Shown: positions 27,605 through 52,040 of the stretch, in pieces
Position numbering within the stretch: the stretch's first letter is position 1
Layout: each line of letters starts with the position of its first letter
Assembly: GCA_903847385.1 (NCBI GenBank)
Contig: CAINDO010000548.1
Span: 9,918-73,917, forward strand
Length of the DNA: 64,000 nt
From: an uncultured Myxococcales bacterium
GTDB lineage: Bacteria > Myxococcota_A > Bradymonadia > UBA7976 > UBA1532
Direction: 5' to 3'
Program-made: the position numbers and the translations under genes
The notes under the pieces: model-generated
Told to the model about the DNA's origin: nothing
Seen by the model: the letters and a program-made list of their open reading frames with translations, nothing else
Databases searched by the model: none

Positions 27605-29941
27605 TCAGCGGGCGCAGCGCACGCCGTGATCCCGGTCGTTCACGCCGATCTCGATGCGGCGTGCCGCGCGGACGTCCCGCCAACTGTCGTCCGTCGAGTT
27701 CCCGCCGCGGGCCGTCCGACGGTCGCAGTTGGGCGTATCGGCGACGGGATCCACGTCGGGCCCGTCTCCATAGAACGACTCGTCGTAGCAGTCGAAGGTG
27801 ACCTCCGAGACGTTTCCGGCCAGGTCCTGCACGCCGTAGACCGAGTTGCCCGCGGGGTCGGTCGCGGGCACGGGCGCGGTGCGGCCCTCGTCGCAGGCCA
27901 GCATCCAGGCGTGCTCGCAGTCCGGCGCCGGAGCGGCGCCCCATGGGTAGGACAGCGCGTCGTCGTCGCCCACGCAGTCGGCGCTGCCGTGGGTCTCGCA
28001 CCCGCCCCGGGCGGCCTTCTCCCACTCGGCCTCCGTGGGCAGGCGCTTGCCCATCTGGATGCAGTAGTTGTTGCCCTCGCTCCAGGACAGGCAGTTGATC
28101 GGGTGGTCGTCGCGGCCCGGAGTGCCCCAGTTGCAGCCGTCGCCGTCGGACGGCTCCGGGCACCGGCCGGAGTTCACGCAGGCGCGGTACTGGGCCACGG
28201 TGACCTCGTGCCGGTCGATCTCGTAGTCCGCCAGCGTGATGCGCCGCACCGGGCGCTCGGCGGCCGGCTGATTGTCCGAGGTCGCGCCGCGGTAGAACGG
28301 GCCCGCCGCGACGCGCACCATCGGCGCGGCGTCCACCAGGGTGTCCGGGCCGGTGATCCGCAGGGTGAAATCGCCGGCGTCGTCACCGCCCCAGCCGTCC
28401 ACCACGATGTAGACGAGCTCGCCGATGCCCAACCGGGCGGAGAGGATGCTGGTGTGGTCGTTGCCTCCGACGTCGTCGTGGCAGGCGAACTCGGCGTCGG
28501 CGTCCAGGCAGTTGTGTCGCAGCGACAGCATGGTGTCGAAGGCCGTGTCCGTGGTCCGGAACGTGTACACGCCCGCCGCGACGGGCACGAAGATGTACAC
28601 GGCCTCGGGGCCCGTGGCCTGCCCGCACCCGGCGCCCAGCGTGCTGTCCCCGGCGGTGCGCCCGACGACGGCCCCGACCGAGGCGACTTGCGGCCGGTTG
28701 CAGGCCGAGTCGGCGGCGGCGTTGGCCTGGACCTCGAGGGTGAAGTCGCCGCGATTCCCCGTGCCCTCGACGAGCACGAAGACCTCCTGGCCCTCGAGCA
28801 TGGCCATGGTCCGCGTCTCGTTCACCCCGCAGGAGACCTCGGCGGATGCCGGGTCGCAGAGGTTGCGCAGCGCGAGGCTGAAGTCGTTGGCGTGCTGCGT
28901 GACGCGGAACGCGTACACCCCGGCGCTCGGCGCCTGGAAGCGCGCGACGGCCTCGCCGCGATCGGCGGCGTTGCAGCTCGACAAGAACGTGTTGGTGTCG
29001 CCGAGGCTGCCGGCGGTCTGACCGACGGCGAGCTCCAGGGGCGACGCGCACAGCGCCGGAGACTCCATGCAGGGCCCGTAGTTCCCGAAGCGGCCCTGGA
29101 TGCAGGTCCGCGAGCGCATGCCCGCGCGGCCGCACGCCTCGCTCTGGGTCGCCCCGTCGACGCAGTCGTCCGGGTCGTCGCAGCGACCGAAGTCGCCCCA
29201 CTGCCCGCGGTCGCAGGTGCGCACCTGGGCGCCGCGGCCGTTGAGCCCGCAGGCCCGCATGTCCGTCGACCGGTCCACGCAGGTGTCCGGATCGACGCAG
29301 TCCTCGAAGGGGCCGAAGTGGCCGTCCACGCAAGTGTGGGCCTGCTCGCCGCGGCCGTTGAGCCCGCAACGCGCCGTCTCCCGGGTGCCGTCCTCGCAGG
29401 TCCGGTCGGGGTCATCGCAGGGGCCGAAGTCGCTCCACTGCCCGTGGACGCAGATCCGCTCGGCCGTCCCGCGACCCTGCAGCCCGCAGGCCTCGGTCTC
29501 GGCCGCGTCGTCGACGCAGACGTCCGGATCGGCGCACGCTCCGAACTCGCCCCAGACGCCGTCGCGGCAGGTGCGCTCGGTTCGGCCGCGGGCGTTGAGT
29601 CCGCAGTCCTCGGGCTCGGTGGCGCCATCGACACACGTGGGGCCGGCGTCCGGCCCGGGCCCGGGGCCGGCGTCCGCGACGGGCATCACGCCGCCGCCCA
29701 TGGGATCGCCGCCGGTCGGTGTCCCGCCCGTCGAAGCGCCCCCCGAGGCGCCGCCCGCCGCCGTCCCACCGGACACCGTGCCGCCCGTGGCGCCGCCGCC
29801 CGCGTCCGCCCCCCCGACGACTTCGGCGTCCGACGATTTGCCGCTCTGCGTGAGCGAAAGGTCGGGGTTGACGCCGGTGCAGGCGGACGTGCTGCCGAGG
29901 AGAAGGGCGGCGAGGGACCAGCGGAGCCCACGAGGCGTCAT
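27605..29941 (-). CDS. Lipoprotein: Gly-rich tether, five Cys-rich ~40-aa repeats, two PPC-like beta domains and a C-terminal FGE-sulfatase (SUMF1) domain
   Basis: ORF 27605..30007 trimmed to the ATG at 29941, which overlaps the prfC stop (ATGA). This gives MTPRGLRWSLAALLLGSTSAC (lipobox). FGE pattern: HEVTVAQYRACV, INCLSWSEGNNYC, RLPTEAEWEKAARGG, ARGGNS. Confidence 0.85.
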   Translation of the reverse strand: MTPRGLRWSLAALLLGSTSACTGVNPDLSLTQSGKSSDAEVVGGADAGGGATGGTVSGGTAAGGASGGASTGGTPTGGDPMGGGVMPVADAGPGPGPDAGPTCVDGATEPEDCGLNARGRTERTCRDGVWGEFGACADPDVCVDDAAETEACGLQGRGTAERICVHGQWSDFGPCDDPDRTCEDGTRETARCGLNGRGEQAHTCVDGHFGPFEDCVDPDTCVDRSTDMRACGLNGRGAQVRTCDRGQWGDFGRCDDPDDCVDGATQSEACGRAGMRSRTCIQGRFGNYGPCMESPALCASPLELAVGQTAGSLGDTNTFLSSCNAADRGEAVARFQAPSAGVYAFRVTQHANDFSLALRNLCDPASAEVSCGVNETRTMAMLEGQEVFVLVEGTGNRGDFTLEVQANAAADSACNRPQVASVGAVVGRTAGDSTLGAGCGQATGPEAVYIFVPVAAGVYTFRTTDTAFDTMLSLRHNCLDADAEFACHDDVGGNDHTSILSARLGIGELVYIVVDGWGGDDAGDFTLRITGPDTLVDAAPMVRVAAGPFYRGATSDNQPAAERPVRRITLADYEIDRHEVTVAQYRACVNSGRCPEPSDGDGCNWGTPGRDDHPINCLSWSEGNNYCIQMGKRLPTEAEWEKAARGGCETHGSADCVGDDDALSYPWGAAPAPDCEHAWMLACDEGRTAPVPATDPAGNSVYGVQDLAGNVSEVTFDCYDESFYGDGPDVDPVADTPNCDRRTARGGNSTDDSWRDVRAARRIEIGVNDRDHGVRCAR
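29069..29635 (-). repeat. Five tandem protein-level repeats C-x-D-x(6-7)-CG-x2-GRG-x3-R-x-C-x2-G-x-[WF]-G-x-F-G-x-C
   Basis: They span residues 103-291 of the 27605..29941 product. Examples are TCVDGATEPEDCGLNARGRTERTCRDGVWGEFGAC and TCVDRSTDMRACGLNGRGAQVRTCDRGQWGDFGRC. Confidence 0.85.
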
Positions 29942-31518
29942 TGAATCTCCATCGTCTTCAGGAACCGGATCTTGGGGTTCTGACTGGCGGCGTAGTTCAT
30001 GGCCCACTCGGTGTTGGCGATGAACGTGACGTTGTCCGCGAGGTCGCGATAGATGCGGTCGCGGTTGGTCTTCACGAACTTGTCCAGGGCCTCGGCGTCG
30101 TCGGAGAAGAGCCAGCGCGCCGCCTGGTAGGGCACCTGCTCGAAGATGGCCCGCACGTTGTATTCGCTGGCCAGGCGCGACTGGATCACGTCGAACTGCA
30201 GGCTGCCCAGGGCGCCCAGGATGTAGTCCTGGCCGTCCATGGGGCGGAAGAGCTGGGCGGCGCCCTCCTCCGCGAGCTGCTCCAGTCCCTTGACCAGGGA
30301 CTTGGACTTCAGGGGATCCAGCAGCCGCGCGCGCCGGAAGAGCTCGGGCGCGAACGATTGGATGCCGGTGAACTTGAGGTCCTCGCCCTCGGTGAAGGTG
30401 TCGCCGACCCGGATGGAGCCATGGTTGTGGATGCCGATGATGTCACCGGGGAACGCCTGCTCGGTCACCGTCCGGTCGCGGGCCAGGAAAGTGGTGGCGT
30501 TGTTGACGGCCATGTCGCGCCCCGTCCGCACGTGTTTCAGCTTCATCCCGCGGTTGTATTCACCGGAGACGATGCGAATAAAAGCCATGCGGTCGCGGTG
30601 CGACGGGTCCAGGTTCGCCTGAATCTTGAACACGAAGCCCGTGAAGGTGGGCTCCTCCGGTTCGACGTACCGCGTGGCCGTCGCGCGCACTTGCGGCGCC
30701 GGGGCGAACTGCACGAAGCAGTCGAGCAGCTCCTTCACGCCGAAGTTGTTGATGGCGCTGCCGAAGAACACCGGCGTCTGCTTGCCGCGACGATAGGCCT
30801 CGGGGTCGAAGGGCGGCGAGGCCCCCTCGAGCAGCTCGAGCTCGTTGCGCAGGCGTGCGGCGGCGTCCGGGCCGATCCAGTCCTCGAGCGCCGGGTCCTC
30901 GGGGGCGATGGCCACGACGTCGTTCTTCCGGCCCTTCGTGGCGTCCTGATAGAACACGACGGCGCGGTGGATGAGATCGTAGACGCCCTGGAAGTCCTTG
31001 CCCATGCCGATGGGCCAGGTCATCGGCGCGGTCTGGATGCCCAGCTGCTTCTCGATGGTGTCGAGCAGCTCGAAGGGGTCCATGGACTCGCGGTCGTACT
31101 TGTTGCAGTAAGTCATCACGGGCGTGTCGCGCATGCGGCACACCTCCATGAGGGCCAGGGTGCGCGCCTCGACGCCCTTCGCGGAGTCGAGCACCATCAG
31201 CGCGCTGTCGACGGCCGTGAGCACCCGGTAGGTGTCTTCGGAGAAGTCCTCGTGACCCGGTGTGTCGAGCAGGTTCACGGCGCAGCCCTGGTGCTCGAAG
31301 CTCATCACCGCCGTGCTCACGGAGATGCCGCGCTGCTTCTCGATCTCGATGAAGTCCGAGGCCGCATGGCGCCCCGCACGCCGGGCACGCACGGCGCCGG
31401 CCATCTGAATGGCTCCGCCGAAGAGCAGCAGCTTCTCCGTGATCGTGGTCTTGCCGGCGTCCGGGTGGCTGATGATGGCGAAGGTTCGCCGGCGGGCGAT
31501 TTCCTGGGTGTGTGACAT
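29938..31518 (-). CDS. prfC: Peptide chain release factor 3
   Basis: 526-aa ORF. The GTPase motifs AIISHPDAGKTT, DTPGHEDF and NKYD are present, and the sequence is RF3-typical throughout (e.g. WPIGMGKDFQGVYDL). Confidence 0.95.
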   Translation of the reverse strand: MSHTQEIARRRTFAIISHPDAGKTTITEKLLLFGGAIQMAGAVRARRAGRHAASDFIEIEKQRGISVSTAVMSFEHQGCAVNLLDTPGHEDFSEDTYRVLTAVDSALMVLDSAKGVEARTLALMEVCRMRDTPVMTYCNKYDRESMDPFELLDTIEKQLGIQTAPMTWPIGMGKDFQGVYDLIHRAVVFYQDATKGRKNDVVAIAPEDPALEDWIGPDAAARLRNELELLEGASPPFDPEAYRRGKQTPVFFGSAINNFGVKELLDCFVQFAPAPQVRATATRYVEPEEPTFTGFVFKIQANLDPSHRDRMAFIRIVSGEYNRGMKLKHVRTGRDMAVNNATTFLARDRTVTEQAFPGDIIGIHNHGSIRVGDTFTEGEDLKFTGIQSFAPELFRRARLLDPLKSKSLVKGLEQLAEEGAAQLFRPMDGQDYILGALGSLQFDVIQSRLASEYNVRAIFEQVPYQAARWLFSDDAEALDKFVKTNRDRIYRDLADNVTFIANTEWAMNYAASQNPKIRFLKTMEIQ

Positions 31519-31583
31519 GGCCGCGCGAGATACCGGTCGCGCGGGCGTTTTTCAAGGGTGGCCGCCCGATCCGGGGCCCAGCG

Positions 31584-32909
31584 TCACAGATCGTGGCGAA
31601 AAGAGATGCTGAAGCTGTGGATGCGCCCGCCCGCACGGTAGTCGCCCACGGGATCGCGGGCGCCGAGCGTCTTCTCCACGTCGAGCGTTTGCATCAGCGT
31701 CGCCTGATAGGCCACGTCCAGGTGGATCTGGTTCTCGCGGATCTCCAGGGGGTCGTGGAAGCTCACACCGGCGCCGACGGACAGCAGGTGGGCAGCGGCG
31801 TCGATGTAGTTGAACGCCTCCGTCGGCACGGGCGCAGGACTCGGCCGCCAGCTGTAGCCGGCGCGCACGACCAGGTTCTCCGAGGGCCGCTGCTCCAGTC
31901 CCAGGCGGGCCGTGAGGGTGTCGACGAAGCCGAGGTCCACGTGGGCGCCGTTCGTGACGTCGAGGCGCTCGCCGAGGCCCACGCCCTCGATGAGCTCGCC
32001 GCCGACGTCGATCTCGAAGCGGGGCGAGGGGTCCGGCGCCAGGGACCACATCGCATAGCTCAGCTCACCGCTGACGAGCAGGTCGAGCGCGGCGAAGTGC
32101 CAGGCGCCGCCCAGGTTCAGCACGTGCGGGCTGTAGAGCACCGTGCCGCCGATGTTCAGGTCCAGGTCGACCAATTCGGCGATGAACAGACGCGTCGGCA
32201 GTTGATACTCCAACGCCAGCGCGCCGCGCCACGAGGCGCCGAGCCGCAGGGACTCCGTCGGGTGCGAGAACACACCCAGCGTCGGCGCCGCCACCGGGGT
32301 GACCTCGACGTTGACGCTCCGCTGAGCGACCGTCCGATTGGCCAGGTCGATGTGCAGGTCGATCGCGCCGTCGAGCCCGGCCAGGACCTGCACGCCGGCA
32401 CCCAGGCTCAGCCAGGGCCCGAACTCGAACGCGCCGGCGGCCAGAATGTCGTATTTGTCCGGTAGGTTCTGGTACAGATAGAACTGCGGCACCTGGGAGT
32501 CGATGCCCTCGGCGCGCAGCAGGTTCAGCGTGGGCAGGTAGGCCGTCACGCCGACGGCGACGCGGTTCTCGATGAGCCCGCCCAGGGGAAACAGCACGCC
32601 GAGGTTGAACCCGGAGAAGGCCGGCGGGCGCTCGTCGGGCACCGTCGACCGACTCGATTCGCGGTCGATGAACAGATGGGGGAACGTGGCGATGAACCCC
32701 GCGCCGACGCTGGTCTGTTTCTTCTGCGTCATCGCCGCGGGGTTGTAGAACGCGGCCGTGTAGTCATCGGCGACGGCGGTTTGCGCGTTGCCCATGGCCG
32801 TGCCGCGCGGGTTCAGCCCGTAGATGTCCAGGACGCTGGCGGACGCGGGGGCTGCGCCGAGGAGCGCCACCGCTGCGGCCGACCGGAGACTCAGGGCGCG
32901 GGGCGTCAC
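31584..32909 (-). CDS. Outer-membrane transport protein, FadL/OMPP1/Toluene_X-like
   Basis: ORF 31584..34010 trimmed to the GTG at 32909, which overlaps the upstream stop (GTGA). This gives (M)TPRALSLRSAAAVALLGAAPASA. Other features are the start GTAMGNAQTAVADDYTAAFYNPA, a beta-strand pattern throughout, and the ending ...FSISFRHDL. Confidence 0.7.
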   Translation of the reverse strand: MTPRALSLRSAAAVALLGAAPASASVLDIYGLNPRGTAMGNAQTAVADDYTAAFYNPAAMTQKKQTSVGAGFIATFPHLFIDRESSRSTVPDERPPAFSGFNLGVLFPLGGLIENRVAVGVTAYLPTLNLLRAEGIDSQVPQFYLYQNLPDKYDILAAGAFEFGPWLSLGAGVQVLAGLDGAIDLHIDLANRTVAQRSVNVEVTPVAAPTLGVFSHPTESLRLGASWRGALALEYQLPTRLFIAELVDLDLNIGGTVLYSPHVLNLGGAWHFAALDLLVSGELSYAMWSLAPDPSPRFEIDVGGELIEGVGLGERLDVTNGAHVDLGFVDTLTARLGLEQRPSENLVVRAGYSWRPSPAPVPTEAFNYIDAAAHLLSVGAGVSFHDPLEIRENQIHLDVAYQATLMQTLDVEKTLGARDPVGDYRAGGRIHSFSISFRHDL

Positions 32910-34090
32910 AGGTCGCCCCCCGGCGTCGTCGGCGGGCAGCTCGAGAGCAGGGCGTCCACCAGGCGCAGGGCCTCGTTCCACGCGCCCACATCCAGCAACA
33001 GCCGCAGCTCCGGCAACACTTCGGCCGCGACGACCGGGTCGAGCACGGTCGTGAGCAGGCGGGTCACGGCCTGTCGCACGTCCGGGTCGGCGCCGAGCGT
33101 GCGCACCACGCCCACCAGCGGCGCGAGCCGGTCCGTGAGCGCCCGGTCGGCCAGGAGCCCGAGCGCGGCGTCCAGCGTGTCCGGGCGTTGCAGAAACACA
33201 TCGTAGGCGAGATACACGAACACCGGCGGCGCGACACGGGGCGTGCTCTGCGAGGTCGCGTCGGGGCAGGCGGGCAGCCCGTACAGGTCGCAGCACAGCA
33301 GGTCGCGCACCGGCGGAAACACCGTCCCCATGGGCGAGAGCAGCGCGATGGCGCCCTCGACGACGGTCGAGGCCGGCGGCTCGGAAAGGAGGTCCGTCAG
33401 ACCGCCGACGGTGTCCACCAGGCTGCGGATGCTCTGGCCCGGGTCCGCCCCCGGCCGAATCAGCGCCGCCTGCAGATTGCACAGGAACGTTGCCAGGTGC
33501 TCGCGGTTCAACGCGCCGGCCTCGCTCAGCAGGGCGCGGATCTCCGGCTGTGCCAGCGTCGCGCGCAGCGGCTCGGCCAGCGCCAGGACCTCCGGGCCGC
33601 TCAGCACGGCGTCCAGCGTGGCGTACAGCGGCCCCGCGGCGCAGTGCTGCACCAGGGCGCTCAGCTCGCCGAGCAGGGCGGCGTCCACGCCCCCGCCGGG
33701 GCCGTTCGTGGCCGCGTAGTCCAGAAGTCCGGACAGCAGCTCCAGGGCGGGCGCCAGGCGTTCGCTCGCCAGCAGGTCCAGCAGCGCGCCGAGCTGGTCT
33801 CCGGGCAGCGCGCGCACCACCCGCAGGGCAGCGTCCAGGACGGCCGTGAGCTGCGACTGATCGAGCGTCTCGCCGAGCAGGCGTCGAACGGCGGGCAGCC
33901 GGCCCTCCCGCAGGAGCGCCGTCAGCCGGGGCGCGAGGTCGTCCACGCCGGGGCACGGGCGGCCGATGTCCGCAGGCGTCGGCGCCGCGGCGTCCTCGTC
34001 TGCGCCGCAACCGGCCAGCAACGCACCGAGCGCGAACACACCCCGAATCAGGGGAGGGGCCCGGCGAGGCCCCGGCGCTCGGTCAGTCAC
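32906..34090 (-). CDS. Leu/Ala-rich helical lipoprotein, function unknown, no heme motif
   Basis: The GTG at 34090 overlaps the upstream gene by 8 nt. The lipobox is in RGVFALGALLAGC. There is no CXXCH motif, and the composition suggests an all-alpha repeat fold. Confidence 0.65.
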   Translation of the reverse strand: MTDRAPGPRRAPPLIRGVFALGALLAGCGADEDAAAPTPADIGRPCPGVDDLAPRLTALLREGRLPAVRRLLGETLDQSQLTAVLDAALRVVRALPGDQLGALLDLLASERLAPALELLSGLLDYAATNGPGGGVDAALLGELSALVQHCAAGPLYATLDAVLSGPEVLALAEPLRATLAQPEIRALLSEAGALNREHLATFLCNLQAALIRPGADPGQSIRSLVDTVGGLTDLLSEPPASTVVEGAIALLSPMGTVFPPVRDLLCCDLYGLPACPDATSQSTPRVAPPVFVYLAYDVFLQRPDTLDAALGLLADRALTDRLAPLVGVVRTLGADPDVRQAVTRLLTTVLDPVVAAEVLPELRLLLDVGAWNEALRLVDALLSSCPPTTPGGDL

Positions 34091-35330
34091 ACTCGGCGGC
34101 CAGCGCGGCCATGTCGGTGTGGCACTTGCGGCAGGCGCGGTCGTTGACCTTCAAAATGCGGCCGCAGACCCGCTCGAACCCGCCGGGGTGCGGGCTGGTG
34201 GAAGACGAGCCACCCCGGGCGAGCGTGGCGTGACAGCGCAGGCAGTCGTTCTCCTCGTGGCAGCCCACGCACTGGCGCAGGTTGCGCCGCGCCTCGTACA
34301 TGTGATGGTCCGGCGAGGTGACGTCCCCCTTGAACGTGGCCGAGTGGAAGTTCGCCAGGCCGCCCGCGTTGGCGGCGTCCCGGAAGCCGAGGCCCGTGTT
34401 CACGGCCGCCGTCACGCCGCTGCGCAGGTGGCAGTCGCGGCAGAAGGTCTGCAGGCGGTGGCACTTGCTGCACTGCGGATCGTCGCGCCGCGCCTCGGGC
34501 GGATGCGTCAGGATGTAGTCCGCGGCGTGGATCGTCAGCGGCTTGACGTGCCCCGTGTGACACTTGCTGCACTCGGATTCGGTGTGGCAGTTCTTGCAGT
34601 AGGCCACGTCGGCCTTGGCCGCCGGGCCGTGGCTGCGGGCGAAGTCGCCGCGGTGGTCGTCGTTGCGGAACAGACCGCGCGGCGTGAGCTTGCCGCCGGG
34701 CAGGGCAGTGACGAGCACGCCGTCCGGCCGCGCCGTGTGGCACGTGGCGCACGTCGCCGGCGCGGTCTTGCCGTCGTGGCAGGCCAGGCAGTCGTCCATC
34801 ATCGGCATGTGTTCCAGCGTGGCCAGACCGGCCTGGGCCACGCCCTTGTGGCAGGCGTCGCAGGCCGCGCCGCGCGTCAGGTGGGCCTGATGGCTGAACA
34901 CGATGGACGCCGTGGGGATCTCCACCGCGGGCGGGTGGGGCGAGGCCTTGGCGGTCTCGTCCAGCGGCGTGTCCGGGGGGAACGTCGGCGAATAGCCCGG
35001 GTGGCACGTGGCGCAGGCCGCGGGCGGGCTGGCCTTCTCCGGCGACGCCTCGGTCACGTCGTGGCAGTCGAAGCAGGTGCGCTCGGGGGGCAGGTTGCGG
35101 TCCGAGGGCCGCGTGCTCTTGGCGACGTCGTGGCACTCGTCGCACTGCATCTTGGCCTTGCCCAGGTGGAGCGCATGATCGAAGGCGAGCGGGATCGTCT
35201 GGTCGCCGAAGATGGCGGCCAGGGGCCCACGTTGGGTGTGCTGGGCCGCGGCCGGCGCGGCCGTCAGGACCAGGGCGAGGCCGAGCAGCAGCCAGGAGAG
35301 GCCGGCGGGAACGGAGGCACGACGCATCAT
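34083..35330 (-). CDS. Periplasmic multiheme c-type cytochrome (13 CXXCH motifs)
   Basis: ORF 34083..35465 trimmed to the ATG at 35330, which shares 1 nt with the upstream stop. This gives the signal peptide MMRRASVPAGLSWLLLGLALVLTAAPAAA with no lipobox. CXXCH sites counted: CDECH, CFDCH, CATCH, CDACH, CLACH, CATCH, CKNCH, CSKCH, CSKCH, CRDCH, CVGCH, CLRCH, CRKCH. Confidence 0.9.
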   Translation of the reverse strand: MMRRASVPAGLSWLLLGLALVLTAAPAAAQHTQRGPLAAIFGDQTIPLAFDHALHLGKAKMQCDECHDVAKSTRPSDRNLPPERTCFDCHDVTEASPEKASPPAACATCHPGYSPTFPPDTPLDETAKASPHPPAVEIPTASIVFSHQAHLTRGAACDACHKGVAQAGLATLEHMPMMDDCLACHDGKTAPATCATCHTARPDGVLVTALPGGKLTPRGLFRNDDHRGDFARSHGPAAKADVAYCKNCHTESECSKCHTGHVKPLTIHAADYILTHPPEARRDDPQCSKCHRLQTFCRDCHLRSGVTAAVNTGLGFRDAANAGGLANFHSATFKGDVTSPDHHMYEARRNLRQCVGCHEENDCLRCHATLARGGSSSTSPHPGGFERVCGRILKVNDRACRKCHTDMAALAAECD

Positions 35331-36745
35331 CAAAGCCAGTCCTCCAGGCTCACCTGGGCGAAGATTCGACCACGAAACGGCGTGAACTTGCTGGCGTGGC
35401 CCTCGCCGAGCAGCTCGAGGTTCACGGACTCCGACGCCCGCCAGGAGGTCCCGACGACGGCCCACCCGGAGACGCCGCCCAGGTTGGCCTGCTGCTCGTC
35501 GTCGAAGTGGACCGCGCCGAGCCGACCGCTGAGCCGGAGCGGCTCGACGCCGGGCGTGAGGCCCACGGGCATGCGCCCGAAGACGTCGCCGTAGATGCGC
35601 TGCCCGCCGTAGCCCAGGCCGGCGCGGCCCTCGGCGCCCACGCTGGCGTCGTCCACCACGGCGCCGACCAGGCGCTCGGCCCGCAGGCCGGCGTCGTAGG
35701 CGCGTTTGCTCGTGTCGAAGCCGGTCGCGCCGTCGTGCAGGTCGCCGCCGGAGAACTGCCGCACGCCGCCGTCCAGCGAGAAGCGCCAGAGGTCGGGATC
35801 GAAGCGCAGCCGGCCGGTGAAGTCGTTGTAGGCCTCGATGGAGAACGCGTTCCAGATGCTGTCGGCGCTGAAGGTCGGGTTCTCCCGCCGCCAGGCGAGC
35901 TCGGTGCGCCAGGCGTCCAGGAAACTCCAGCCCAGTCCGGCGTGGACCGAGCCCATGCGTCGATAGATGACGTCGTAGCGGGCGCCGGTCGTGATCGAGA
36001 AGCCGGGGACCAGCGTCAACTCGAGGCCGCCGCCGGCCTCCTCGCGCTGCAGATGCGAGGTGTCTTCGAACTGGCGGCGATAGGCGCCCCGGAACGAGAC
36101 CCAGTCGGCCACGGCCGTCTCCAGGGCGCCGCCGACCAGGAAGGCCGGCACGTCCGGCAGCGTGGTGCCGTCCGGCGAGTAGATGTCCGGGCCCAGGTTC
36201 GACCAGCCGCTGCGCACCGCCAGACCGCCCGTGGTCTCGAGCACGACGAAGGGGACACGCACCCGGAGCGTGGCGCCGTCGACGGCGTCCAGGCCGACCT
36301 CGTCCACCAGCAGATGCCGGCCGACCCGTGCCTGCAGCTCGAAGTCGCGCGTGTTCACGAACCGGCCCTCGAAGTATGCGTAGTGCAGCTCGAAGGCGGC
36401 GCGGCGCGTATCGCCCAGCACCTGCTTCTGCGCGTCCCGCTCGGCGTCGGTGCGGCCGAAGTCGGCGCCGACGTCCAGATCGGCGACGAACCGGTAGCGG
36501 TCCGTCTCCGTGCCGTCGTCCTCGATGTCGAAGACCCCCAGTCGCAGGCGCGGGCGGACGTCCAGGCGCTCGACGGGCTCGGGTCGCGTGCCGCGCCAGC
36601 GGTCGGCGGTCAACTGCGTGTCGGCGCCGACGAAGTAGTCGGCGGCGAGGGGAGCGCCTGGCATCGCGAGCAGCGTCCAGCCCGCGAGGCGGGCGGCGCG
36701 GCGGAGGCGAAGGCGAGGGGCGACGGCCGATTCCGGGAGGTCCAT
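35330..36745 (-). CDS. Predicted outer-membrane beta-barrel protein (family not recognised)
   Basis: 471-aa ORF and first gene of the operon. The N-terminus RLRRAARLAGWTLLAMPGAPLAADY is signal-like. The product is Gly/Arg/Asp/aromatic-rich with an alternating strand pattern and ends ...RIFAQVSLEDWL. Confidence 0.6.
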   Translation of the reverse strand: MDLPESAVAPRLRLRRAARLAGWTLLAMPGAPLAADYFVGADTQLTADRWRGTRPEPVERLDVRPRLRLGVFDIEDDGTETDRYRFVADLDVGADFGRTDAERDAQKQVLGDTRRAAFELHYAYFEGRFVNTRDFELQARVGRHLLVDEVGLDAVDGATLRVRVPFVVLETTGGLAVRSGWSNLGPDIYSPDGTTLPDVPAFLVGGALETAVADWVSFRGAYRRQFEDTSHLQREEAGGGLELTLVPGFSITTGARYDVIYRRMGSVHAGLGWSFLDAWRTELAWRRENPTFSADSIWNAFSIEAYNDFTGRLRFDPDLWRFSLDGGVRQFSGGDLHDGATGFDTSKRAYDAGLRAERLVGAVVDDASVGAEGRAGLGYGGQRIYGDVFGRMPVGLTPGVEPLRLSGRLGAVHFDDEQQANLGGVSGWAVVGTSWRASESVNLELLGEGHASKFTPFRGRIFAQVSLEDWL

Positions 36746-36885
36746 GGCGGCGGAGTCTAACAGCGCCGCCGCCGCGGTACTACGCCGAGATGAACGCCTC
36801 GCTCCGCAAAAGGGTTCCGACTGTCTGCAAAAATTTCATACCCCCGGTGAGGGGGTGAGCCCCCGCGCGGCCCACTGCGGCGTAG

Positions 36886-36901
36886 TGGAACGTTTTTTGC
36901 T
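36886..36901 (+). promoter_or_regulatory. Sigma-54 (-24/-12) type promoter upstream of the minor-pilin operon
   Basis: TGGAACG-TTTT-TTGCT compared with the consensus TGGCACG-N4-TTGCW. The GG (36887-36888) and GC (36899-36900) are separated by exactly 10 nt. It lies about 50 nt upstream of the GTG at 36950, within a locally AT-richer stretch. Confidence 0.55.
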
Positions 36902-36949
36902 ACTGCGTCCTCGACCCGAACAGGCGACGAGCACGGAGAGGACAGGCCG

Positions 36950-37633
36950 GTGAACAAGAACGAACCGCACGCGACCCCGGCGAGCCCCCCCATCCCCCGC
37001 GGTCCGCGGGGCTTCACCCTCGTGGAGCTGCTCTTCGCCGTGACGCTCATCCTGGTGTTGAGCTTCCTGGCTTTCCCCTCGCTGAAGACCTTCAGCGCCC
37101 GGGACCACGACACCAGCATGGCGACCTTCGTCTCCCACGAGTTCAACCGGGTGAAGACGCAGGCGCAGATGCGCAACCGCCCGTACATCGTGCGTTTTCA
37201 GGACTTCAGCGGCCAGTCGCCGCGGGGCATCTTCGAGATCTACGAGAGCAACAACACGAGCTGCGTGGACGCCTTCACCGACCTGAACGCCAACGCGCGG
37301 CGTCTGGCGAGGTACGGCTTCGGCGCCACGCCCCTGGCGGGCCAGGCCGACTGGACGCAGCCGCCCGGCGGCACCGACAAGATCATCGGCCTCACCGGCT
37401 GGGTCGGTGTCGGCGGCAACCTCGCGCAGCCCGAGCGCGCTCAGCCCCTGGTGCTCTGCGTCCGCCCGGACGGCTCGGTCCACACGCTGGCCGCCGGGGT
37501 CAGCACCCCGCTCGCCGGGCGCATCGCGCTGCTCGTCCAGCGCTTCGGCGCCGGCCAGATCGTCACGCCCGAGGGCCCCGCGCGGGTCATCCGCTTCGAT
37601 TTCACCCAGCCCGCACGCCTGGAGTTGCTGTGA
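36950..37633 (+). CDS. GspH/FimT-family type IV minor pilin (prepilin-type N-terminal methylation domain)
   Basis: GTG start at 36950 with GGAG 11 nt upstream. The prepilin motif is PRGFTLVELLFAVTLILVL. Confidence 0.8.
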   Translation: MNKNEPHATPASPPIPRGPRGFTLVELLFAVTLILVLSFLAFPSLKTFSARDHDTSMATFVSHEFNRVKTQAQMRNRPYIVRFQDFSGQSPRGIFEIYESNNTSCVDAFTDLNANARRLARYGFGATPLAGQADWTQPPGGTDKIIGLTGWVGVGGNLAQPERAQPLVLCVRPDGSVHTLAAGVSTPLAGRIALLVQRFGAGQIVTPEGPARVIRFDFTQPARLELL

Positions 37634-38220
37634 TGGTCGCCCGACACGGAGTCACCGTGAATCCCCGAGCATCCCGCCGCCCGCGCGGCTTCAGCCTGGT
37701 CGAGGTCCTCGTGGCCGTGGTCGTGAGCGCCGTCGGCTTCGCGGCCGTCTTCGCGCTGCAGATCCGCACCATGCAGGGCAACATCTCGGCCCGAGAGCAG
37801 GCGGCGGCCATGGTCCTGGCCGAGTCGGGCCTGGAGACGCTCCGCACGGAGTCCTACCGGTGGCGCAGCGATGCGCTGCCCGTGGGCCTGCTCTCCGCGG
37901 CCCCACGCCAGTGGCACACGCTCACCGAGCAGCCCGTCGACCACACGGGCCTGCCGCTGAACAGCGCCGCGATCCCCGGCAGCGAGCTCAATCGCCAGCG
38001 CTTCTGCGTCCACTACTGGCTCGAGCCCCTGGACGGCACCTTCAGCCAGCTCCTGAACCTGCGCGTGCGCGTGGTGTGGCCGCGATCGACGAACGACGTC
38101 GGCGGTCTGGCGGCCATGTGCACCGAGATCGGCGCCGTCGCCTTCGTACCGCGCAACCCGGACAGCGTGCAGCGGTGGAACAGCATCACGCTGCCCGGCG
38201 CCCTCCGGATGCGGGAGTGA
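37630..38220 (+). CDS. pilV: Type IV pilus minor pilin, PilV-like
   Basis: The GTG at 37630 overlaps the upstream stop (GTGA). An alternative ATG is at 37633. The prepilin motif is PRGFSLVEVLVAVVV. Size and position after the fimT-like gene are also consistent. Confidence 0.75.
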   Translation: MMVARHGVTVNPRASRRPRGFSLVEVLVAVVVSAVGFAAVFALQIRTMQGNISAREQAAAMVLAESGLETLRTESYRWRSDALPVGLLSAAPRQWHTLTEQPVDHTGLPLNSAAIPGSELNRQRFCVHYWLEPLDGTFSQLLNLRVRVVWPRSTNDVGGLAAMCTEIGAVAFVPRNPDSVQRWNSITLPGALRMRE

Positions 38221-39404
38221 TGAACACCATGCGTCGCAATCGCGGTTTCACCCTCGTCGAGCTGCTGGTCGCGTCGGTCCTGTCCGGGGCCGTGCTGACC
38301 TCGATCTACTTCGTGTTCATCTCGAACTCGCGGCAGTACTACACGCAGGAGCAGGTCGTTCAGATGCAGGAGTCCATGCGCTTCGCGCTGGAGTACCTGA
38401 AGAACGACCTGCGCAACGCCGGGCAGATGGCCCTCGTCAACGGCACCGCCGTCGACACGGACCCCTTCTACTGCGGGCCCCGGAGCGACGATCTGCGCGC
38501 CGTGGACCTCATGAACAACACGGCGGGGGCAGATGCCCCGGCGATCCTCTCCAACCTGGGCAACGCGATCTCGCCGGACCGGATCTCGATCCTCTCCGAT
38601 GCTTCGGGCGGGACGATGCTCGGGGCGCGCTTCGACGGCGCCAACCTGAAGCTGCTCGCCCGGACGGAGCAGATCAGCGCGTCTTCGATGCGCATCGTGG
38701 AGAGCGCGCCCCGGTTCAACGCCCTGTTCCGCACGGGGTACTACCTGCGGATCATGGCGCCGACGGGGCACTTCGACCTCGTGCCCATCACCGGGGTCGC
38801 GTTCGCGGCCGGCGGCGAGTCGACGGTCACGCTGTCGAGGCCGCCGCTCTGCGTGGCCGCCGCCGCCGAGAGCCTGCGTGTGAACACCGTGCAGCGCGTG
38901 CGCTACCGGATCATCGCCGACCCGGCGGACGCGACGAAGACCAACCTGATCCGCGAGGTCATCGACGCGAGCAACCCCGCGCAGGTCGTCGCCGGCGGCA
39001 CGCTGACGGTCGCCGAGTTCGTGGTCAACCTCCAGGTCTGGGGCACCTACGATTCGCGCCTCGCCGCGCTGCCCAAGGACCCGGTCATCAATCCGGATCC
39101 GCGTCTGACGGACGACGTCGGCAACTGGACACCGGTCGTCGTGAACGAGTCGCTGGCGATGAACGTCCGGCCGCACCGCATCCGGGCCTTGAACGTGCTG
39201 CTCGCCACGCGCAGCAACCGCGAGGACGCCGACATGCACCTCGCGCCGGACATCGCGCGCAACGAGAATCAGCGCATCGCGGCGGACCGCACCTGGTTCG
39301 ACGTGGTGGCCGAGGCGGCGCCGCTCCCGCCGAACTTCGCCCGCGTCACCACGCTGCAGGCCCGCGTGGAGACCCCCAACCTGTTGACGGAGGGCGACCT
39401 GTGA
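38220..39404 (+). CDS. pilW: Type IV pilus minor pilin, PilW-like
   Basis: This is the in-frame tail of ORF 37407..39404. The ATG at 38220 shares 1 nt with the upstream stop. It gives MNTMRRNRGFTLVELLVASVLSGAVL, is about 394 aa long, and ranks third in the cluster. Confidence 0.75.
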   Translation: MNTMRRNRGFTLVELLVASVLSGAVLTSIYFVFISNSRQYYTQEQVVQMQESMRFALEYLKNDLRNAGQMALVNGTAVDTDPFYCGPRSDDLRAVDLMNNTAGADAPAILSNLGNAISPDRISILSDASGGTMLGARFDGANLKLLARTEQISASSMRIVESAPRFNALFRTGYYLRIMAPTGHFDLVPITGVAFAAGGESTVTLSRPPLCVAAAAESLRVNTVQRVRYRIIADPADATKTNLIREVIDASNPAQVVAGGTLTVAEFVVNLQVWGTYDSRLAALPKDPVINPDPRLTDDVGNWTPVVVNESLAMNVRPHRIRALNVLLATRSNREDADMHLAPDIARNENQRIAADRTWFDVVAEAAPLPPNFARVTTLQARVETPNLLTEGDL

Positions 39405-40084
39405 AGACCCGCCGCAAGAACGATCCGCGCGGCAGCGCGCTGATCCTCGCGATCCTGATCATGCTGGCCATGCTGGGCCTGGGCCTGATGGCCATGCGCA
39501 CTACGACCCACGCCATGGCCGCCACCGGCAACATCCGGTTGGCGCGTCAGGCGCGGCTCGTCGCCGAGACGGGCATCTACCACGTGGCGACCGTGATGAA
39601 CCGCGGCGGGCTGTCCTACCTGCAGCGGCGCGGCGACCTGCGGGCGCCCGGTGAGGTCGTCCGCATCCGCTTCAACAGTGATGGCACGGTGCAGTACTTC
39701 CGGGGCACGCAGACCGTCGCCGAGAACGTCGGCGCCGTCACCGGGACCACCGCGCCCGTGCCGGCGTTCCTCACGGCGGACGCCAACCGGCCCAGCGCGC
39801 TCGGGACCTTCGCCGACGGCGCCGGCCTGGTGCCCAGCTACTTCGTGGAGCTCGACGGCTTCTCGGTGCTCGACCCCGTCGGCGGGCCCACCTGCGACGG
39901 CAACCCGGCGCTCTGCCCGAAGGACTGCCTGGTCGAGTTCACGGCGACGGGCTTCCTGGCCCGCGTGCCGCTGCCGGGCGACGCCGTCTTCAACGATCGA
40001 AACGTGACCGACCAGTTCGCCCAGCAGACGATCAAGGCCGTGCTCCGCGTGCCCGTCTCCTCGGGTGATCTGTGCCAGAAATGA
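39401..40084 (+). CDS. pilX: PilX-like pilus assembly protein (PilX N-terminal hydrophobic domain)
   Basis: The GTG at 39401 overlaps the upstream stop (GTGA). RGSALILAILIMLAMLGLGLMAM lacks the G/F-E cleavage motif, as is typical for PilX_N. Confidence 0.7.
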   Translation: MKTRRKNDPRGSALILAILIMLAMLGLGLMAMRTTTHAMAATGNIRLARQARLVAETGIYHVATVMNRGGLSYLQRRGDLRAPGEVVRIRFNSDGTVQYFRGTQTVAENVGAVTGTTAPVPAFLTADANRPSALGTFADGAGLVPSYFVELDGFSVLDPVGGPTCDGNPALCPKDCLVEFTATGFLARVPLPGDAVFNDRNVTDQFAQQTIKAVLRVPVSSGDLCQK

Positions 40085-43000
40085 ACCGGGAAACGGGGGA
40101 AAAACGCATGAAGCGCACTCGTACCAGCCGCCGTCAGGGCACCTTGGCCGCGGCCGCCTGTGTCTTCTTCGGTCCGGCCGTCGGCCAGGCGATCGCCCAG
40201 AACGCGGGCGCACCGAAACCGGAGATCATGCTGCTGGTCGGCTCGTCCCGGACGATGGAGCGCTCCGTCGGCGCGTGCACGCCGGACGGTTGCACCCCGG
40301 CCGACGCCGCCTGCTACAACTGGGCGCAGGACCCCCGGCTGCAACCGCCGGCGAACCGCGTCCCGCCCCCGGACCCCACGTACACGCCGTCGCGCATGCA
40401 CCTGATCAAGCAGGCGCTGACCGGCGGGAGCGGTGGGCCCTTCCTCTGCGCGGTCGACCAGGAGTGCATCAAGGACAACGCGTCGGCGACGCCGAACGCG
40501 TGCTCCGTGGAGCTCAACGCCGGCGAGGACAACGACAACGACCTGTCCCACTATCACTATCGCCAGTGGTGCTGCGTCGCCGGCAATTGCGCCAACGCGG
40601 TGCCGTGCGGCGGCGACTCCGGCGACATGACGGTCAACGACTATGCGTTCGTGTCCGCGGATCCCGGCGCCAACATCCTGCCGTACTCCCCGGGGGCGAG
40701 CGCCGACGTCGACACCCAGGGTGTGGTCTATCAGCTTCGCGCGGACGTGAAGTTCGGCCTGATGACCTACGACGCCTCCGTCGACAAGTTCGAGGGCTGG
40801 CGCGGCGGATTCTCCTATCCCAACATCGGCTACGTCGAAGATGGCGTGCAGTTCTCGGTGGACCGTGCCGGGGCCGGGGCCAGCCTGACCGAGCCGACGA
40901 ACCTGCCCGCGACGGACGCCGCCGCGGCGACGCGCCTCATCCCGCCCGTGGCCGCGAGCCTGCTGGCCGGCACGTTCGACCGCATCCGCGCTTCGCAGGA
41001 CCCCACGCGCCCGAACCTGGGCATCAAGAACAGCCTGGCGCCCTTCGGCGGCCTGGTGGACAGCAACTTCGGGCTCGTGAACGACCCGCTCCGCACGGTG
41101 GGCGAGTCGGACGCCAACGTCGCGAACCACAACCTCTTCGTCGCCGAGCGCATCCGCAGCATCGTGCCCTCGGGCTCGGCGCCCGTCGCCGCCGCCCTGC
41201 ACGACGCCCTCGAGTACTACAAGCGGTCGGCGTCGGACCACGGCGATCCGGCGAACGCCTGCCGCGACCGCACGCTGGTGCTGATTGGGGACGAGGCGCC
41301 CACCCGTTACGTCGGCGGTTTCGTGGACAACTCGGCCGCCGTGCCCGTGGCCTGCGCCCGGGACGCCGACTGCAACGCCGTCGCTGGTGGCCGGTGCGAG
41401 GCCGCGAACCCGGTTCAGGACCCCACCAGCCGCGCCTCGAAGGCCGGACATGCGCTCTGCGTGTACCCGGACGGCTACCCGTATCGCAGCAGCGTCGACT
41501 ACGCCGGCGAGCTGTATCAGTCCGGCGTGCCCGTCTACGTGGTCGGTTTCGCGCCCACGAAGGAGGCCCAGAGGGCCTTCAAGGCCATCGCCGAGGCCGG
41601 CTCGCCGGGTCGCGGCCCCAACGGCAGCGGTGGCTACTTCCGCGCCGACGACGCCGACCAGCTCCGCGCGGCCATCACGAAGATCCGCAACTCGCAGGTC
41701 GCCGGCACGCGGTCGCACACGCGGCCCCTGGTGCTGTTTCCCCGCAAGGGCGATACGAACGCCGCCCCTTCGACCCGCCAGTGGCGCCTGAACGCCTGGT
41801 CCGAGGTGCCGGGCAGCGCGGATCCGTTCTGGTACGGCAAGCTCCAGCGCGCCGATCTGTCCTGCCCCGCCCCCGGGGCCGCCGGGGCGGAGTCCGCGGC
41901 GCGGGTCCTCGCCGGCACGACCGAGTTCCAGTCCGTCCTGAACGCGACGCCCAACGCGCCGCGCCGCGTGGTGGCCAGGGAGGGGGCCCAGATCTTCACG
42001 GCCTCCGGTGGCGCCGGCGCGAACATGTTCAACGCGGACGGCACCGTCGGCGCGGCTTACCCCGAGCCCACGGTCCGCTCCTTGACCTCGACGATTCGCC
42101 CGGGCGGTGCCGCCAACGACGCGGCCGACGAGGCCCTGCGCTTCGTCGGTCGGCAGATGAACGGCTTCTTCGGGGCGCGCGGCCTGCCCGACGGGGCCCG
42201 CCAGAACCCCGCGGCGCGCGTGCTCGGCTCCATCGTCAACTCGGAGCTCGTGGCCATCACCCCGCCGGCGCTCCCGCTGACGGCGGGCGCCTACGTGACC
42301 TTCGCGACCACCCACCGGGACCGCCCGACGATGATCGCGACCGGCGCCAACGACGGCATGGTCCACCTGTTCCGCGCGGACACCGGGGCCGAGGTCGTCA
42401 ACTTCGTCCCATTCTCGGCGTGGCCCGCGCTGCGCAACTCGGCGGCGACGCGCCTCGTCGACGGCCCCCTGGACGTGGGGGACGTCTCGTCCTGCCGCTC
42501 CTACGGCGCCGTGACGCCGACCTGCCCGGCCGGTCTCACCGAGCCGAGCCTGCGCACGATGCTCGTCGGCACCGTCGGCAAGAACGGGTCGGACATCTTC
42601 GGCATCGACGTGACCCACACGACGGCGCTGGCCAAGCAGGTCGTCACGGATCCCGTGAGCCTGCCGAACCTGTTCCAGGGCGGTCCGGCCAACTCGGCCC
42701 GCATCTGGGACATCACGCCGACCACGGGGGACATCGAGTACAAGGACCGCCTCGGCAAGGCCGTCTCCCGCCCGGCGCTGACCCACGTGCGCGACGGCGA
42801 CAAGGTGCGCGCCGCGGTCATCGTCGGCTGCGGCGACGACGACACTGGGCCGCTCACCAGCAATCTCGGCGGCGTCGGCCGCTGTGTGCTCGTGCTGGAC
42901 GCGATCACCGGCCAGAAGATCACGGTCCTCGACGGCAACGATCTGGAGACCAGCGCCGAGGGCAACTTCGACATGCCGGTCACGGGCTCGGCGGCCGTGT

Positions 43001-43986: not shown

Positions 43987-44502
43987 ATGCGGGCGACGGG
44001 TCTCCTCGCTCTCCTGGTCCCGTTCGGCCTTTTGGGCTGCTCGCGGGCCCCGGCGCCCGCCGGCGAGGTGCAACCGCCGGCGGCGGTGACTTCGGCGCCG
44101 GCGACCACCGCGCCGGTCGTGCCCGCGACCCCCCGCGATCCCGCTCGGCAGCTCGTCGCCGAGACGCTCTCGCTGCCCGTGCGCGGCGGGGTGGGGTACT
44201 GGGGCGTCACCCCGCCCGCCGACTGCTCGGCGCAGAGCGCCACGGACGCCGCGCTCCGGTTCCTCTGCACGGTGTCGCTCGAGGAGCTCGAGCGGTACTT
44301 CCGCTACTACTACCCGGTGCTGCGCCTCGTGGAGCGCCCGGGCGGCCTCACGGTCGGGGGCGCCCCGGAGCAGGCCACGGCGCACGTGGTCTCGCTGCCG
44401 GTGGGGGCGCACGGCGCGCAGCTCATCTTGAATCGCCCGCAGCGCGGCCCGCGGGACGAGATAGCCGAGACCCTCCTGAGCCGGCTCCTCGCCCGACCAT
44501 GA
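43987..44502 (+). CDS. Small lipoprotein, function unknown
   Basis: The ATG lies 3 nt after the pilY1 stop. It gives MRATGLLALLVPFGLLGC (lipobox), followed by a Pro/Ala-rich linker and a ~100-aa globular part. Confidence 0.6.
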   Translation: MRATGLLALLVPFGLLGCSRAPAPAGEVQPPAAVTSAPATTAPVVPATPRDPARQLVAETLSLPVRGGVGYWGVTPPADCSAQSATDAALRFLCTVSLEELERYFRYYYPVLRLVERPGGLTVGGAPEQATAHVVSLPVGAHGAQLILNRPQRGPRDEIAETLLSRLLARP

Positions 44503-45778: not shown

Positions 45779-46030
45779 ATGACCCCCAATTTCCTCAACG
45801 AGACCCGTAACTTCTTCGAGACCGAGATGGCGTTCTGGAAGGCTCAGGCCACCGAGCTGAGCGAGAAGAACGTCGCGCAGACGGAGTCCTTCGTGAAGGA
45901 GGCCCGCGAGCGCCTCCAGAGCGCCGCCGACGCCCAGTCCAACCTGGTCGTCTCGCTCTGGAAGCACAACATGGACGCCCTCGAGCGCGGCGCGAAGCTC
46001 GCCACGTCGGCCTTCAGCCTCCCGGTCTGA
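45779..46030 (+). CDS. Small amphipathic helical protein, a candidate phasin
   Basis: This is the in-frame tail of ORF 45632..46030, 83 aa long (MTPNFLNETRNFFETEMAFWKAQATELSEK...). It has a good SD and leads the phaE-phaC-phaR gene set. No family motif was recognised. Confidence 0.5.
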   Translation: MTPNFLNETRNFFETEMAFWKAQATELSEKNVAQTESFVKEARERLQSAADAQSNLVVSLWKHNMDALERGAKLATSAFSLPV

Positions 46031-46103
46031 GGCGATTCGTCGCTTCGTCACGACTCGTCTCGTCTCCGAAATCCCGCATACCCGATACCGAAAGCGAAGA
46101 GCG

Positions 46104-52037: not shown

Positions 52038-52040
52038 GGA

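Follow-up and report, generated by a model that had tools for sequence, protein, structure and literature searches.

The outer membrane electron conduits known so far are from a small number of Proteobacteria and Desulfobacterota, and genome surveys find them mainly through homology to Mtr, Pio, and Geobacter proteins. Whether proteins outside these families could form such a conduit in Myxococcota is the question raised by a locus in a 64,000-nucleotide (nt) stretch of contig CAINDO010000548.1 (assembly GCA_903847385.1) from an uncultured Myxococcales bacterium; we refer to this whole stretch as the window. Four same-strand genes there encode a predicted outer membrane β-barrel (g1), a multiheme cytochrome c (g2), a lipoprotein (g3), and a FadL-family channel (g4). 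A first-pass annotation of the window had read all four together as a variant porin-cytochrome conduit, in which the lipoprotein is a surface component without heme and a channel for hydrophobic substrates is appended. We found that the conserved unit is the g1-g2 pair, not the four genes, and we tentatively propose that this pair acts as a two-component electron conduit.

The distribution of g1 relatives defines what travels together. A word-indexed search returned only 18 close relatives, and a scan limited to one genome per species located 11 loci with g1 relatives, all in metagenome-assembled genomes of uncultured Myxococcota (labeled Myxococcota, Myxococcales, Bradymonadia, or Nannocystaceae, and in one case only "bacterium"). 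A barrel profile search without the word index, the hits of which are representatives of 50%-identity clusters, recovered 572 representatives at E ≤ 1e-3, of which 251 pass E ≤ 1e-10. Their source names read Myxococcota, Polyangiaceae, or only the older label "Deltaproteobacteria"; where sample names tell, the sources are lakes and activated sludge, and the cluster look-up for source names returned "hypothetical protein" only. We looked up six distant members (L020 to L023, L028, and L029), whose barrels are 21 to 27% identical to g1. At each of the six loci a full-length g2 ortholog (33 to 39% identity) comes next, its gene overlapping that of the barrel by 4 nt or separated from it by 1 nt; it has exactly 13 CXXCH motifs in five cases and 11 in L028, whose copy is cut by the contig end.

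Every checked locus that reaches the next gene, ∼14 close and 6 distant, carries the pair. Where genes were called (the window, L001, L003, L005, L007, L008, L020 to L023, L028, and L029), g1 comes directly before g2 in 12 of 12 contexts, the two genes overlapping by 1 or 4 nt or standing 1 nt apart; the window junction is TGATG at 35328 to 35332, with one base common to the g1 stop and the g2 start. Because the distant loci keep both genes and none has g3 or g4, we conclude that the conserved unit is the two-gene pair. The co-occurrence that the first-pass annotation expected of all four genes was seen for g1-g2 everywhere we checked and broke down for g3-g4 outside the window's clade and in L011 and L013.

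Three pilin-free sister modules have further genes of their own (L021:13270-14879, L023:13180-14486, and L029:10979-12288). The pair is followed there by a conserved 84-amino-acid protein without a signal peptide and then by a protein of 300 to 437 amino acids with an invariant C-x4-C-H. The motif after this site, GLDLT...MP.IDPGNP.NSYLLYK, is planctomycete-cytochrome-like; the L021 copy has a lipobox, and the protein has no Pfam match. It is possibly a redox lipoprotein with an atypical single heme, and if the C-x4-C-H site binds heme, these three modules would have the classical three-part conduit layout, a point in favor of the conduit reading.

The barrel itself belongs to no recognized family. 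g1 matched no Pfam or NCBIfam family, the distant barrel members likewise matched none, and a search of PDB sequences with the g1 family profile found nothing. The hidden Markov models (HMMs) for MtrB/PioB (TIGR03509, which the first-pass annotation had proposed for a search, and PF11854) did not match g1 at E ≤ 1 or any of 33 distant members (Pfam E ≤ 0.01; NCBIfam E ≤ 1). The AlphaFold2 model of g1 (18 homologs) has a signal-peptide helix followed by 22 strands and lacks a plug domain (predicted local distance difference test [pLDDT], 75; predicted template modeling score [pTM], 0.66). The model agrees with the earlier guess of a barrel, and at 22 predicted strands the lumen would not be too small for a heme protein. 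Foldseek comparison of the model with the PDB yielded generic large barrels only, the best being the FimD/PapC ushers (TMq, ∼0.5), which have 24 strands; Occ/OprD substrate-specific porins were among the matches.

The most conserved element of g1 is a hallmark loop motif, P-T-F-S-A-D-S-I-W-N-A-F (PTFSADSIWNAF, residues 290 to 301), which the model places with low confidence. All distant members that we read keep it in the form P-x-F-D-x-D-S-I-[WF]-N-x-F. Assignment of g1 to a named family was rejected, the Pfam, NCBIfam, PDB sequence profile, and fold searches together giving nothing beyond generic barrels, and so were a paralogous relationship between g1 and g4 and one between g1 and the extra 482-amino-acid gene of L007.

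The partner of this barrel is defined by its heme motifs. g2 contains exactly 13 CXXCH motifs in ∼385 mature residues and no CX3CH, CX4CH, or CXXCK; its N terminus is signal peptide-like and has no lipobox, so the description of g2 in the first-pass annotation was accurate. It matches Pfam Cytochrome_C7 (PF14522) in two stretches (E = 6e-18; 64.8 bits against a cutoff of 24.8) and the NCBIfam model TIGR04257, nanowire_3heme (45.3 bits against a cutoff of 40), and the spacing of its motifs describes four c7-like units with 3+3+4+3 hemes, which places it among the c7-type triheme-repeat cytochromes. Other NCBIfam matches were partial ones to QrcA and TmcA only, and the nearest PDB sequences, the ActA subunits of alternative complex III and c7 cytochromes, match at the level of the motifs only. 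No DmsE/MtrA-type or NrfB-type model in NCBIfam matched g2, so that a periplasmic cytochrome of the NrfB/DmsE type with partners elsewhere, the case that the first-pass annotation had guarded against, was not what we found. Membership in the MtrA/DmsE/PioA decaheme family was rejected as well, on the lack of a family HMM match and on 13 hemes in place of ten.

Among 16 aligned g2 orthologs, 12 heme motifs are conserved (the second motif is absent from 12-heme versions). Conserved along with them are 12 further His residues, enough for bis-His ligation of nearly all hemes, and one extra Cys pair; no conserved Met was found in this alignment. Judged from these residues, the hemes are probably bis-His ligated, and g2 has the sequence of a genuine dense heme wire. 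A chain of four c7-type units like that of GSU1996 measures ∼12 nm and is thus long enough to cross the outer membrane and part of the periplasm.

Pairing of a multiheme cytochrome with an outer membrane barrel is the defining signature of known conduits (PMC6148476; PMC10553843), and porin-plus-cytochrome pairs of varying composition are reported from sulfate-reducing syntrophs (PMC10553843). By the conduit criteria of Otero et al. (PMC6148476), the locus has the multiheme cytochrome, g2, and beside it a predicted barrel, g1. We propose that the g1 barrel of ∼22 strands would sit in the outer membrane and sheathe part of g2, as MtrA sits in MtrB, and that the 13-heme, c7-type, probably bis-His chain would extend from the periplasm to the cell surface or near it. 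Electrons would then cross the outer membrane, in whichever direction, much as has been proposed for the surface-cytochrome-less MtoAB and PioAB. We put the probability of this reading at roughly 45%. What survives of the original conduit interpretation is therefore the barrel and the cytochrome, a large predicted barrel coupled to a heme wire; the idea of four genes forming one conduit does not.

Several observations weigh against a conduit. No homology of g1 to MtrB/PioB was detectable; MtrB was outside the top 50 fold matches and absent from the PDB profile search, and MtrB has 26 strands and so is wider than a 22-strand g1. In the model, low-confidence g1 loops (residues 179 to 196, 293 to 300, and 335 to 345) could occupy the lumen. 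The third component named by Otero et al. is not encoded, g3 being without a heme motif; no surface cytochrome accompanies the pair, with g2 the sole CXXCH protein in the window, and neither an inner membrane quinol dehydrogenase nor any other respiratory gene lies in the window. There are 12-heme c7-repeat cytochromes, those of the GSU1996 type, that are free in the periplasm, so g2 need not enter a barrel. Many Myxococcota are aerobic, and we know of no need that they have for extracellular electron transfer.

Much of the same evidence would also accommodate an arrangement in which no heme crosses the membrane: g2 would store or carry electrons while free in the periplasm, and g1 would be a substrate-specific porin admitting a soluble redox substrate (for example, a chelated metal, an oxyanion, or a species of sulfur or selenium) for g2 or for an enzyme fed by g2 to reduce or oxidize. 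TIGR04257, the model that g2 matches, is named for periplasmic Geobacter multiheme proteins, and the ActA subunits that head its PDB matches, along with c7 cytochromes, face the periplasm. The presence of Occ/OprD porins among the g1 fold matches points the same way, as does the Geobacter ExtI barrel, which is tied to selenite/tellurite reduction and not to a surface cytochrome (PMC6148476). However, a plug-less barrel of 22 predicted strands would be far larger than substrate porins of 16 to 18 strands, and in the distant modules examined the pair is not accompanied by any gene for a reductase or oxidase. Moreover, strict one-to-one translational coupling down to 21% barrel identity leads us to expect a physical complex over a channel plus a carrier. 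We consider the porin arrangement, the main rival to a conduit, somewhat unlikely.

The two remaining genes of the block have a different history from the pair. g3-g4 are confined to the window's clade. Twelve clade loci extend far enough to show what follows g1-g2, and in 10 of these g3-g4 lie directly downstream; L011 and L013 have g1-g2 and the pilins but not g3-g4, and all six distant modules lack them. They are by this distribution a clade-specific add-on, and the g1-g2 module would have gained them as outer membrane accessories. In L011 (7110-8190), an opposite-strand gene between g2 and prfC encodes a HupE/UreJ-type-like membrane protein, as judged by eye from its translation.

As the first-pass annotation had it, g3 has an LLAGC lipobox and no CXXCH; variant heme motifs were also sought in it and not found. 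Seven Cys residues (28, 46, 150, 266, 267, 275, and 385; the lipobox Cys and six further) are invariant in 11 orthologs. Its AlphaFold2 model (9 sequences) is all-helical but poor (pLDDT, 52), and g3 has no Pfam or NCBIfam family and no PDB profile match, the best E value in a PDB fold search being 0.9. A homolog search returned 8 close relatives, and neither that search nor a metagenome scan (4 loci, all within the block) placed g3 outside the four-gene block. g4, in turn, is a member of the OMPP1/FadL/TodX family, as had been annotated: residues 19 to 422 align to positions 7 to 400 of the 421-position Pfam Toluene_X profile (PF03349; E = 5.4e-12; 45.3 bits against a gathering cutoff of 29.7). 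It carries an N-terminal PorV/FadL-type hatch signature and a partial AupA match, shows only weak similarity to any solved FadL (E = 0.45), and is the most conserved of the four proteins, at 53 to 76% identity across the clade. Nothing links g4 to redox chemistry.

We found no support for g3 as the heme-less surface component of a conduit or for g4 as its appended channel, given the restriction of both to one clade and the modules that do without them. Nor is a heme-less lipoprotein in a conduit cluster new, because Geobacter ExtHIJKL has one in ExtH (PMC6148476). The block may then be two unrelated modules on one transcript, g1-g2 being a redox pair and g3-g4 taking up or exporting a hydrophobic compound with the assistance of the lipoprotein and with no redox link. 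The joint loss of g3-g4 in L011 and L013 and their absence wherever g1-g2 occur outside the clade are as this would predict, as is the full-length FadL-family match of g4, and a FadL-type channel with an operon-encoded partner is known in AupA/AupB (PMC5989066). Against it, g3 was never found apart from g1-g2 in these searches, and the downstream position is kept in most clade loci. Such a division is unlikely in our judgment; it is compatible with g1-g2 acting as a conduit.

A second feature of the clade lies on the other side of g1. Across ∼15 distinct loci, and with g1 down to 34% identity, the layout is PEGA-lipoprotein-PilY1-PilX-PilW-PilV-FimU <> g1-g2-g3-g4-prfC, with <> marking the divergence. 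The divergent genes constitute a type IVa minor-pilin/PilY1 cluster, with N_methyl motifs in three minor pilins and PilX_N in the fourth, followed by the T4P_PilY1 propeller, and their order is conserved in relatives. The pilins are divergent from g1 in 14 of 15 related clade loci. In L007 two genes are inserted between the pilins and g1; in L018 the pilins and PilY1 are lost, g1-g4 are kept, and the PEGA gene now abuts g1. The pilus operon, recorded in the first-pass annotation as no more than a neighbor across a 204-nt spacer (the length and position of which we confirmed), turned out to be the most consistently linked feature of the locus.

prfC adjoins the block almost everywhere in the clade loci. 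Its constancy equals that of the pilins, so part of the pilus linkage is inherited synteny. We considered whether synteny alone explains the linkage; a recurrence in L028 argues against this. In L028:1-10423 the distant pair again has pilus genes diverging from it: three for N_methyl pilins, one for a PilX_N protein, and one for a 1629-amino-acid PilY1-like protein. This contig is 64.6% G+C, its g1 is 21% identical and its pilins are 23 to 35% identical to those of the window, and its barrel is the family member farthest from the window in a neighbor-joining distance tree, a method unreliable at such distances. PilY1 genes number two on average per genome among 67 myxobacterial genomes surveyed (PMC13190605). 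With so few minor-pilin clusters in a genome, it is unlikely that the pair came to lie beside one a second time by chance, and in the same divergent arrangement. Near the other five distant modules no pilus genes are present. P0109, the tree neighbor of the L028 member, lies on a contig of only 1.6 kb; its 31-codon upstream fragment is not a pilin N terminus and says little either way. To judge by these sequences, the adjacency either is ancient and was kept in two deep lineages or arose twice; both origins would point to some functional or regulatory coupling, although one sampled case makes this thin evidence.

A cytochrome near PilY1 need not carry electrons. TfcP, encoded in the pilus operon beside pilY1.1 in the pilY1.1 cluster of Myxococcus xanthus, is a soluble protein with His/Cys heme ligation that enhances the binding of calcium by PilY1.1, a role believed not to involve electron transfer (PMC8833165). 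By extension, the module could be a type IVa pilus accessory, with g2 repurposed as TfcP was and, instead of carrying respiratory electrons, stabilizing, maturing, or sensing redox for a Cys-rich PilY1/minor-pilin priming complex together with the barrel and g3/g4. TfcP is an example of a cytochrome c that serves PilY1 without transporting electrons (PMC8833165; PMC13190605), and the divergent FimU-PilV-PilW-PilX-PilY1 arrangement, found throughout most of the clade and again in L028, would be explained. On the other hand, most sampled modules outside the clade have no pilus genes near them, L018 retains g1-g4 after pilin loss, and the linkage is in part the synteny that prfC shares. Thirteen conserved, probably bis-His-ligated hemes and a dedicated barrel far exceed the needs of a chaperone, and TfcP differs in its His/Cys ligation and in being encoded inside the pilY1 operon. 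We regard a purely pilus-accessory role as very unlikely. g2 as a TfcP-type single-domain pilus cytochrome c was rejected on its 13 hemes, conserved His residues, and divergent operon.

If g1-g2 form a conduit, the divergent promoter region that the module has in common with the minor-pilin/PilY1 operon suggests co-regulation of surface attachment with surface electron exchange. A stronger version would couple the barrel/13-heme module functionally to the pilus tip: the minor-pilin/PilY1 set would dock the cell on a redox partner, either insoluble or cellular (for example, a mineral, prey, or an electrode-like surface), and the conduit, expressed from the divergent promoter shared with that set, would exchange electrons there, or the redox state of the conduit would gate pilus priming. 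We hold this stronger version to be improbable. Our literature searches found no paper on a Myxococcota porin-cytochrome module or on the term "tridecaheme" and none linking PilY1 or minor pilins mechanistically to a conduit.

Within the 204-nt spacer, an alignment revealed an AT-rich element, TGAAATTTTTGCA, at 36826 to 36838, which occurs once in the window against 0.01 occurrences expected. It lies at the same place in L001, L002, L009, and L010, with identical sequence in L001, L002, and L010, and is not present in more distant relatives; it may be the site of a regulator. No sigma-70-like site was found in the spacer. The conserved TGAAAnTTTTGCA does not, as we read it, fit the spacing of a sigma-54 site; its conservation extends to close relatives only.

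Table 1. Genes of the barrel-cytochrome locus and of the divergent pilus operon, with the spacer between them (window positions).
Feature	Positions	Strand	Description
g1	35330-36745	-	471 amino acids; predicted outer membrane β-barrel, Sec-type signal peptide
g2	34083-35330	-	415 amino acids; Sec-exported 13-heme cytochrome c
g3	32906-34090	-	394 amino acids; clade-specific, predicted all-helical outer membrane lipoprotein, no heme motif
g4	31584-32909	-	441 amino acids; FadL/TodX/OMPP1-family outer membrane channel
Spacer between g1 and first pilin gene	36746-36949	.	204 nt, divergent
FimU-like minor pilin	36950-37633	+	First of four pilin genes
PilV-like minor pilin	37630-38220	+	Second pilin gene
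PilW-like minor pilin	38220-39404	+	Third pilin gene
PilX-like minor pilin	39401-40084	+	PilX_N motif
PilY1	40081-43983	+	1300 amino acids; T4P_PilY1 Pfam match
Small lipoprotein	43987-44502	+	Pilus-tip operon
PEGA-domain protein	44578-45666	+	PEGA Pfam match; last gene of pilus-tip operon

The gene models underlying these comparisons hold up. The window is ∼71% G+C, and the three open reading frames (ORFs) that pass a filter on G+C at third codon positions (GC3), namely, g1, g3, and the first pilin gene, have GC3 values of 0.90 to 0.92; g2 and g4 are missing from the filtered list and are supported by conserved orthologs. Because of these GC3 values and the conservation in many related genomes, the four-gene block is not a product of chance. 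All four genes lie on the minus strand where the first-pass annotation had put them, and its TGATG junction and the GTGA between g3 and g4 (32906 to 32909) were confirmed. The 8-nt overlap that it reported between g2 and g3 depends on GTG at 34090 as the g3 start, which is the earliest possible start and the sole one with a positively charged n-region. With that start the overlap stands in the window; as a conserved junction it does not, with a 35-nt gap in L001, a 155-nt gap in L003, and a 13-nt overlap in L005. Downstream, a perfect G+C-rich hairpin (CCGCGCGA...TCGCGCGG, 31521 to 31544) lies in the 65-nt gap from the g4 stop to the start codon of prfC, which is on the same strand as g4; prfC could be co-transcribed with the block or attenuated after it.

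The window also encodes MurJ, PrfC, an FGE-sulfatase protein, a probable polyhydroxyalkanoate (PHA) synthase, a TonB-dependent receptor, and Ser/Thr kinases. PEGA domains recur: the TonB-dependent receptor (49146 to 52040, minus strand) has two of them ahead of its plug, the last gene of the pilus operon has the domain as well, and a PEGA-containing Ser/Thr kinase/FGE-sulfatase fusion is encoded nearby in L018. The FGE-sulfatase-domain protein of the window (27605 to 30007, minus strand; 800 amino acids) begins with a run of Cys-rich repeats, and several long antisense ORFs over it are high-G+C artifacts. Directly after the pilus operon (45897 to 47605, plus strand), a weak, subthreshold PhaE-like match and a PhaC match probably mark PHA synthase genes; in more distant relatives a PilZ protein and a protein of 840 to 868 amino acids replace them, a break in synteny.

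The barrel family comprises hundreds of sequence clusters from uncultured Myxococcota, all unannotated; no Pfam or NCBIfam model exists for the barrel, and homology-based conduit surveys would miss the family. If the pair is a conduit, extracellular electron transfer, or metal or humic redox cycling, would be extended to a large, mostly aerobic or predatory phylum, and the two genes would offer a compact means of wiring heterologous hosts. A conduit is a plausible and useful reading and would not be startling; coupling to the pilus would be startling if true. Myxococcota are not known for extracellular electron transfer, and such coupling would give them a dedicated "attach-and-wire" unit, with a cytochrome-pilus link unlike both TfcP and the Geobacter pilus/nanowire. 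The occurrence of the pair beside a pilus-tip cluster in two very distant lineages makes pilus-conduit cooperation, a matter of long debate, a testable question in a new setting.

Among known systems, the closest parallels are MtoAB, PioAB, and the MtrAB core of MtrCAB, in which, as in g1-g2, the gene for a barrel stands beside that for a Sec-exported multiheme cytochrome. MtoAB and PioAB are without a surface cytochrome; like them, g1-g2 would need no surface decaheme lipoprotein, and the predicted barrel is in principle large enough for a heme chain. In contrast to all three, g1-g2 show no sequence homology to them, the cytochrome is a 13-heme c7-repeat protein and not an MtrA/DmsE-type decaheme, the barrel gene comes first, and the barrel has ∼22 predicted strands against 26 in MtrB. 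In its c7-type domain, successive c7-like units, and probable bis-His ligation, g2 resembles the dodecaheme nanowire cytochromes of the GSU1996 type. Those cytochromes are free in the periplasm and have no barrel dedicated to them, whereas g2 has 13 hemes (3+3+4+3) and is always encoded with the g1 barrel.

The Geobacter ExtABCD, ExtEFG, ExtHIJKL, and Omb/Oma/Omc clusters, which are mutually nonhomologous, follow the same plan of barrel plus multiheme cytochrome, their barrels being predicted with 18 to 21 transmembrane segments and encoded beside periplasmic dodecaheme cytochromes (PMC6148476); our comparison with them is by description only. In ExtHIJKL the position of the surface cytochrome is taken by ExtH, a rhodanese lipoprotein without heme (PMC6148476); g3 does not belong to the rhodaneses, and the window locus has no lipoprotein cytochrome. 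TfcP, compared by description, is like g2 a c-type cytochrome genetically linked to a Myxococcota minor-pilin/PilY1 cluster (PMC8833165; PMC13190605), while g2 has 13 hemes, candidate distal His ligands, a divergent operon, and a barrel partner. The FadL/TodX/AupA channels share with g4 the full-length Toluene_X domain and the hatch, and AupA also has an operon-encoded partner (PMC5989066); the partner of g4, by comparison, is encoded upstream and is a Cys-rich, predicted helical lipoprotein of no recognized family. Taken by sequence, and with the Ext and Omb clusters compared by description, g1-g2 would represent a new porin-cytochrome family that is nonhomologous to MtoAB/PioAB and so far belongs to Myxococcota only.

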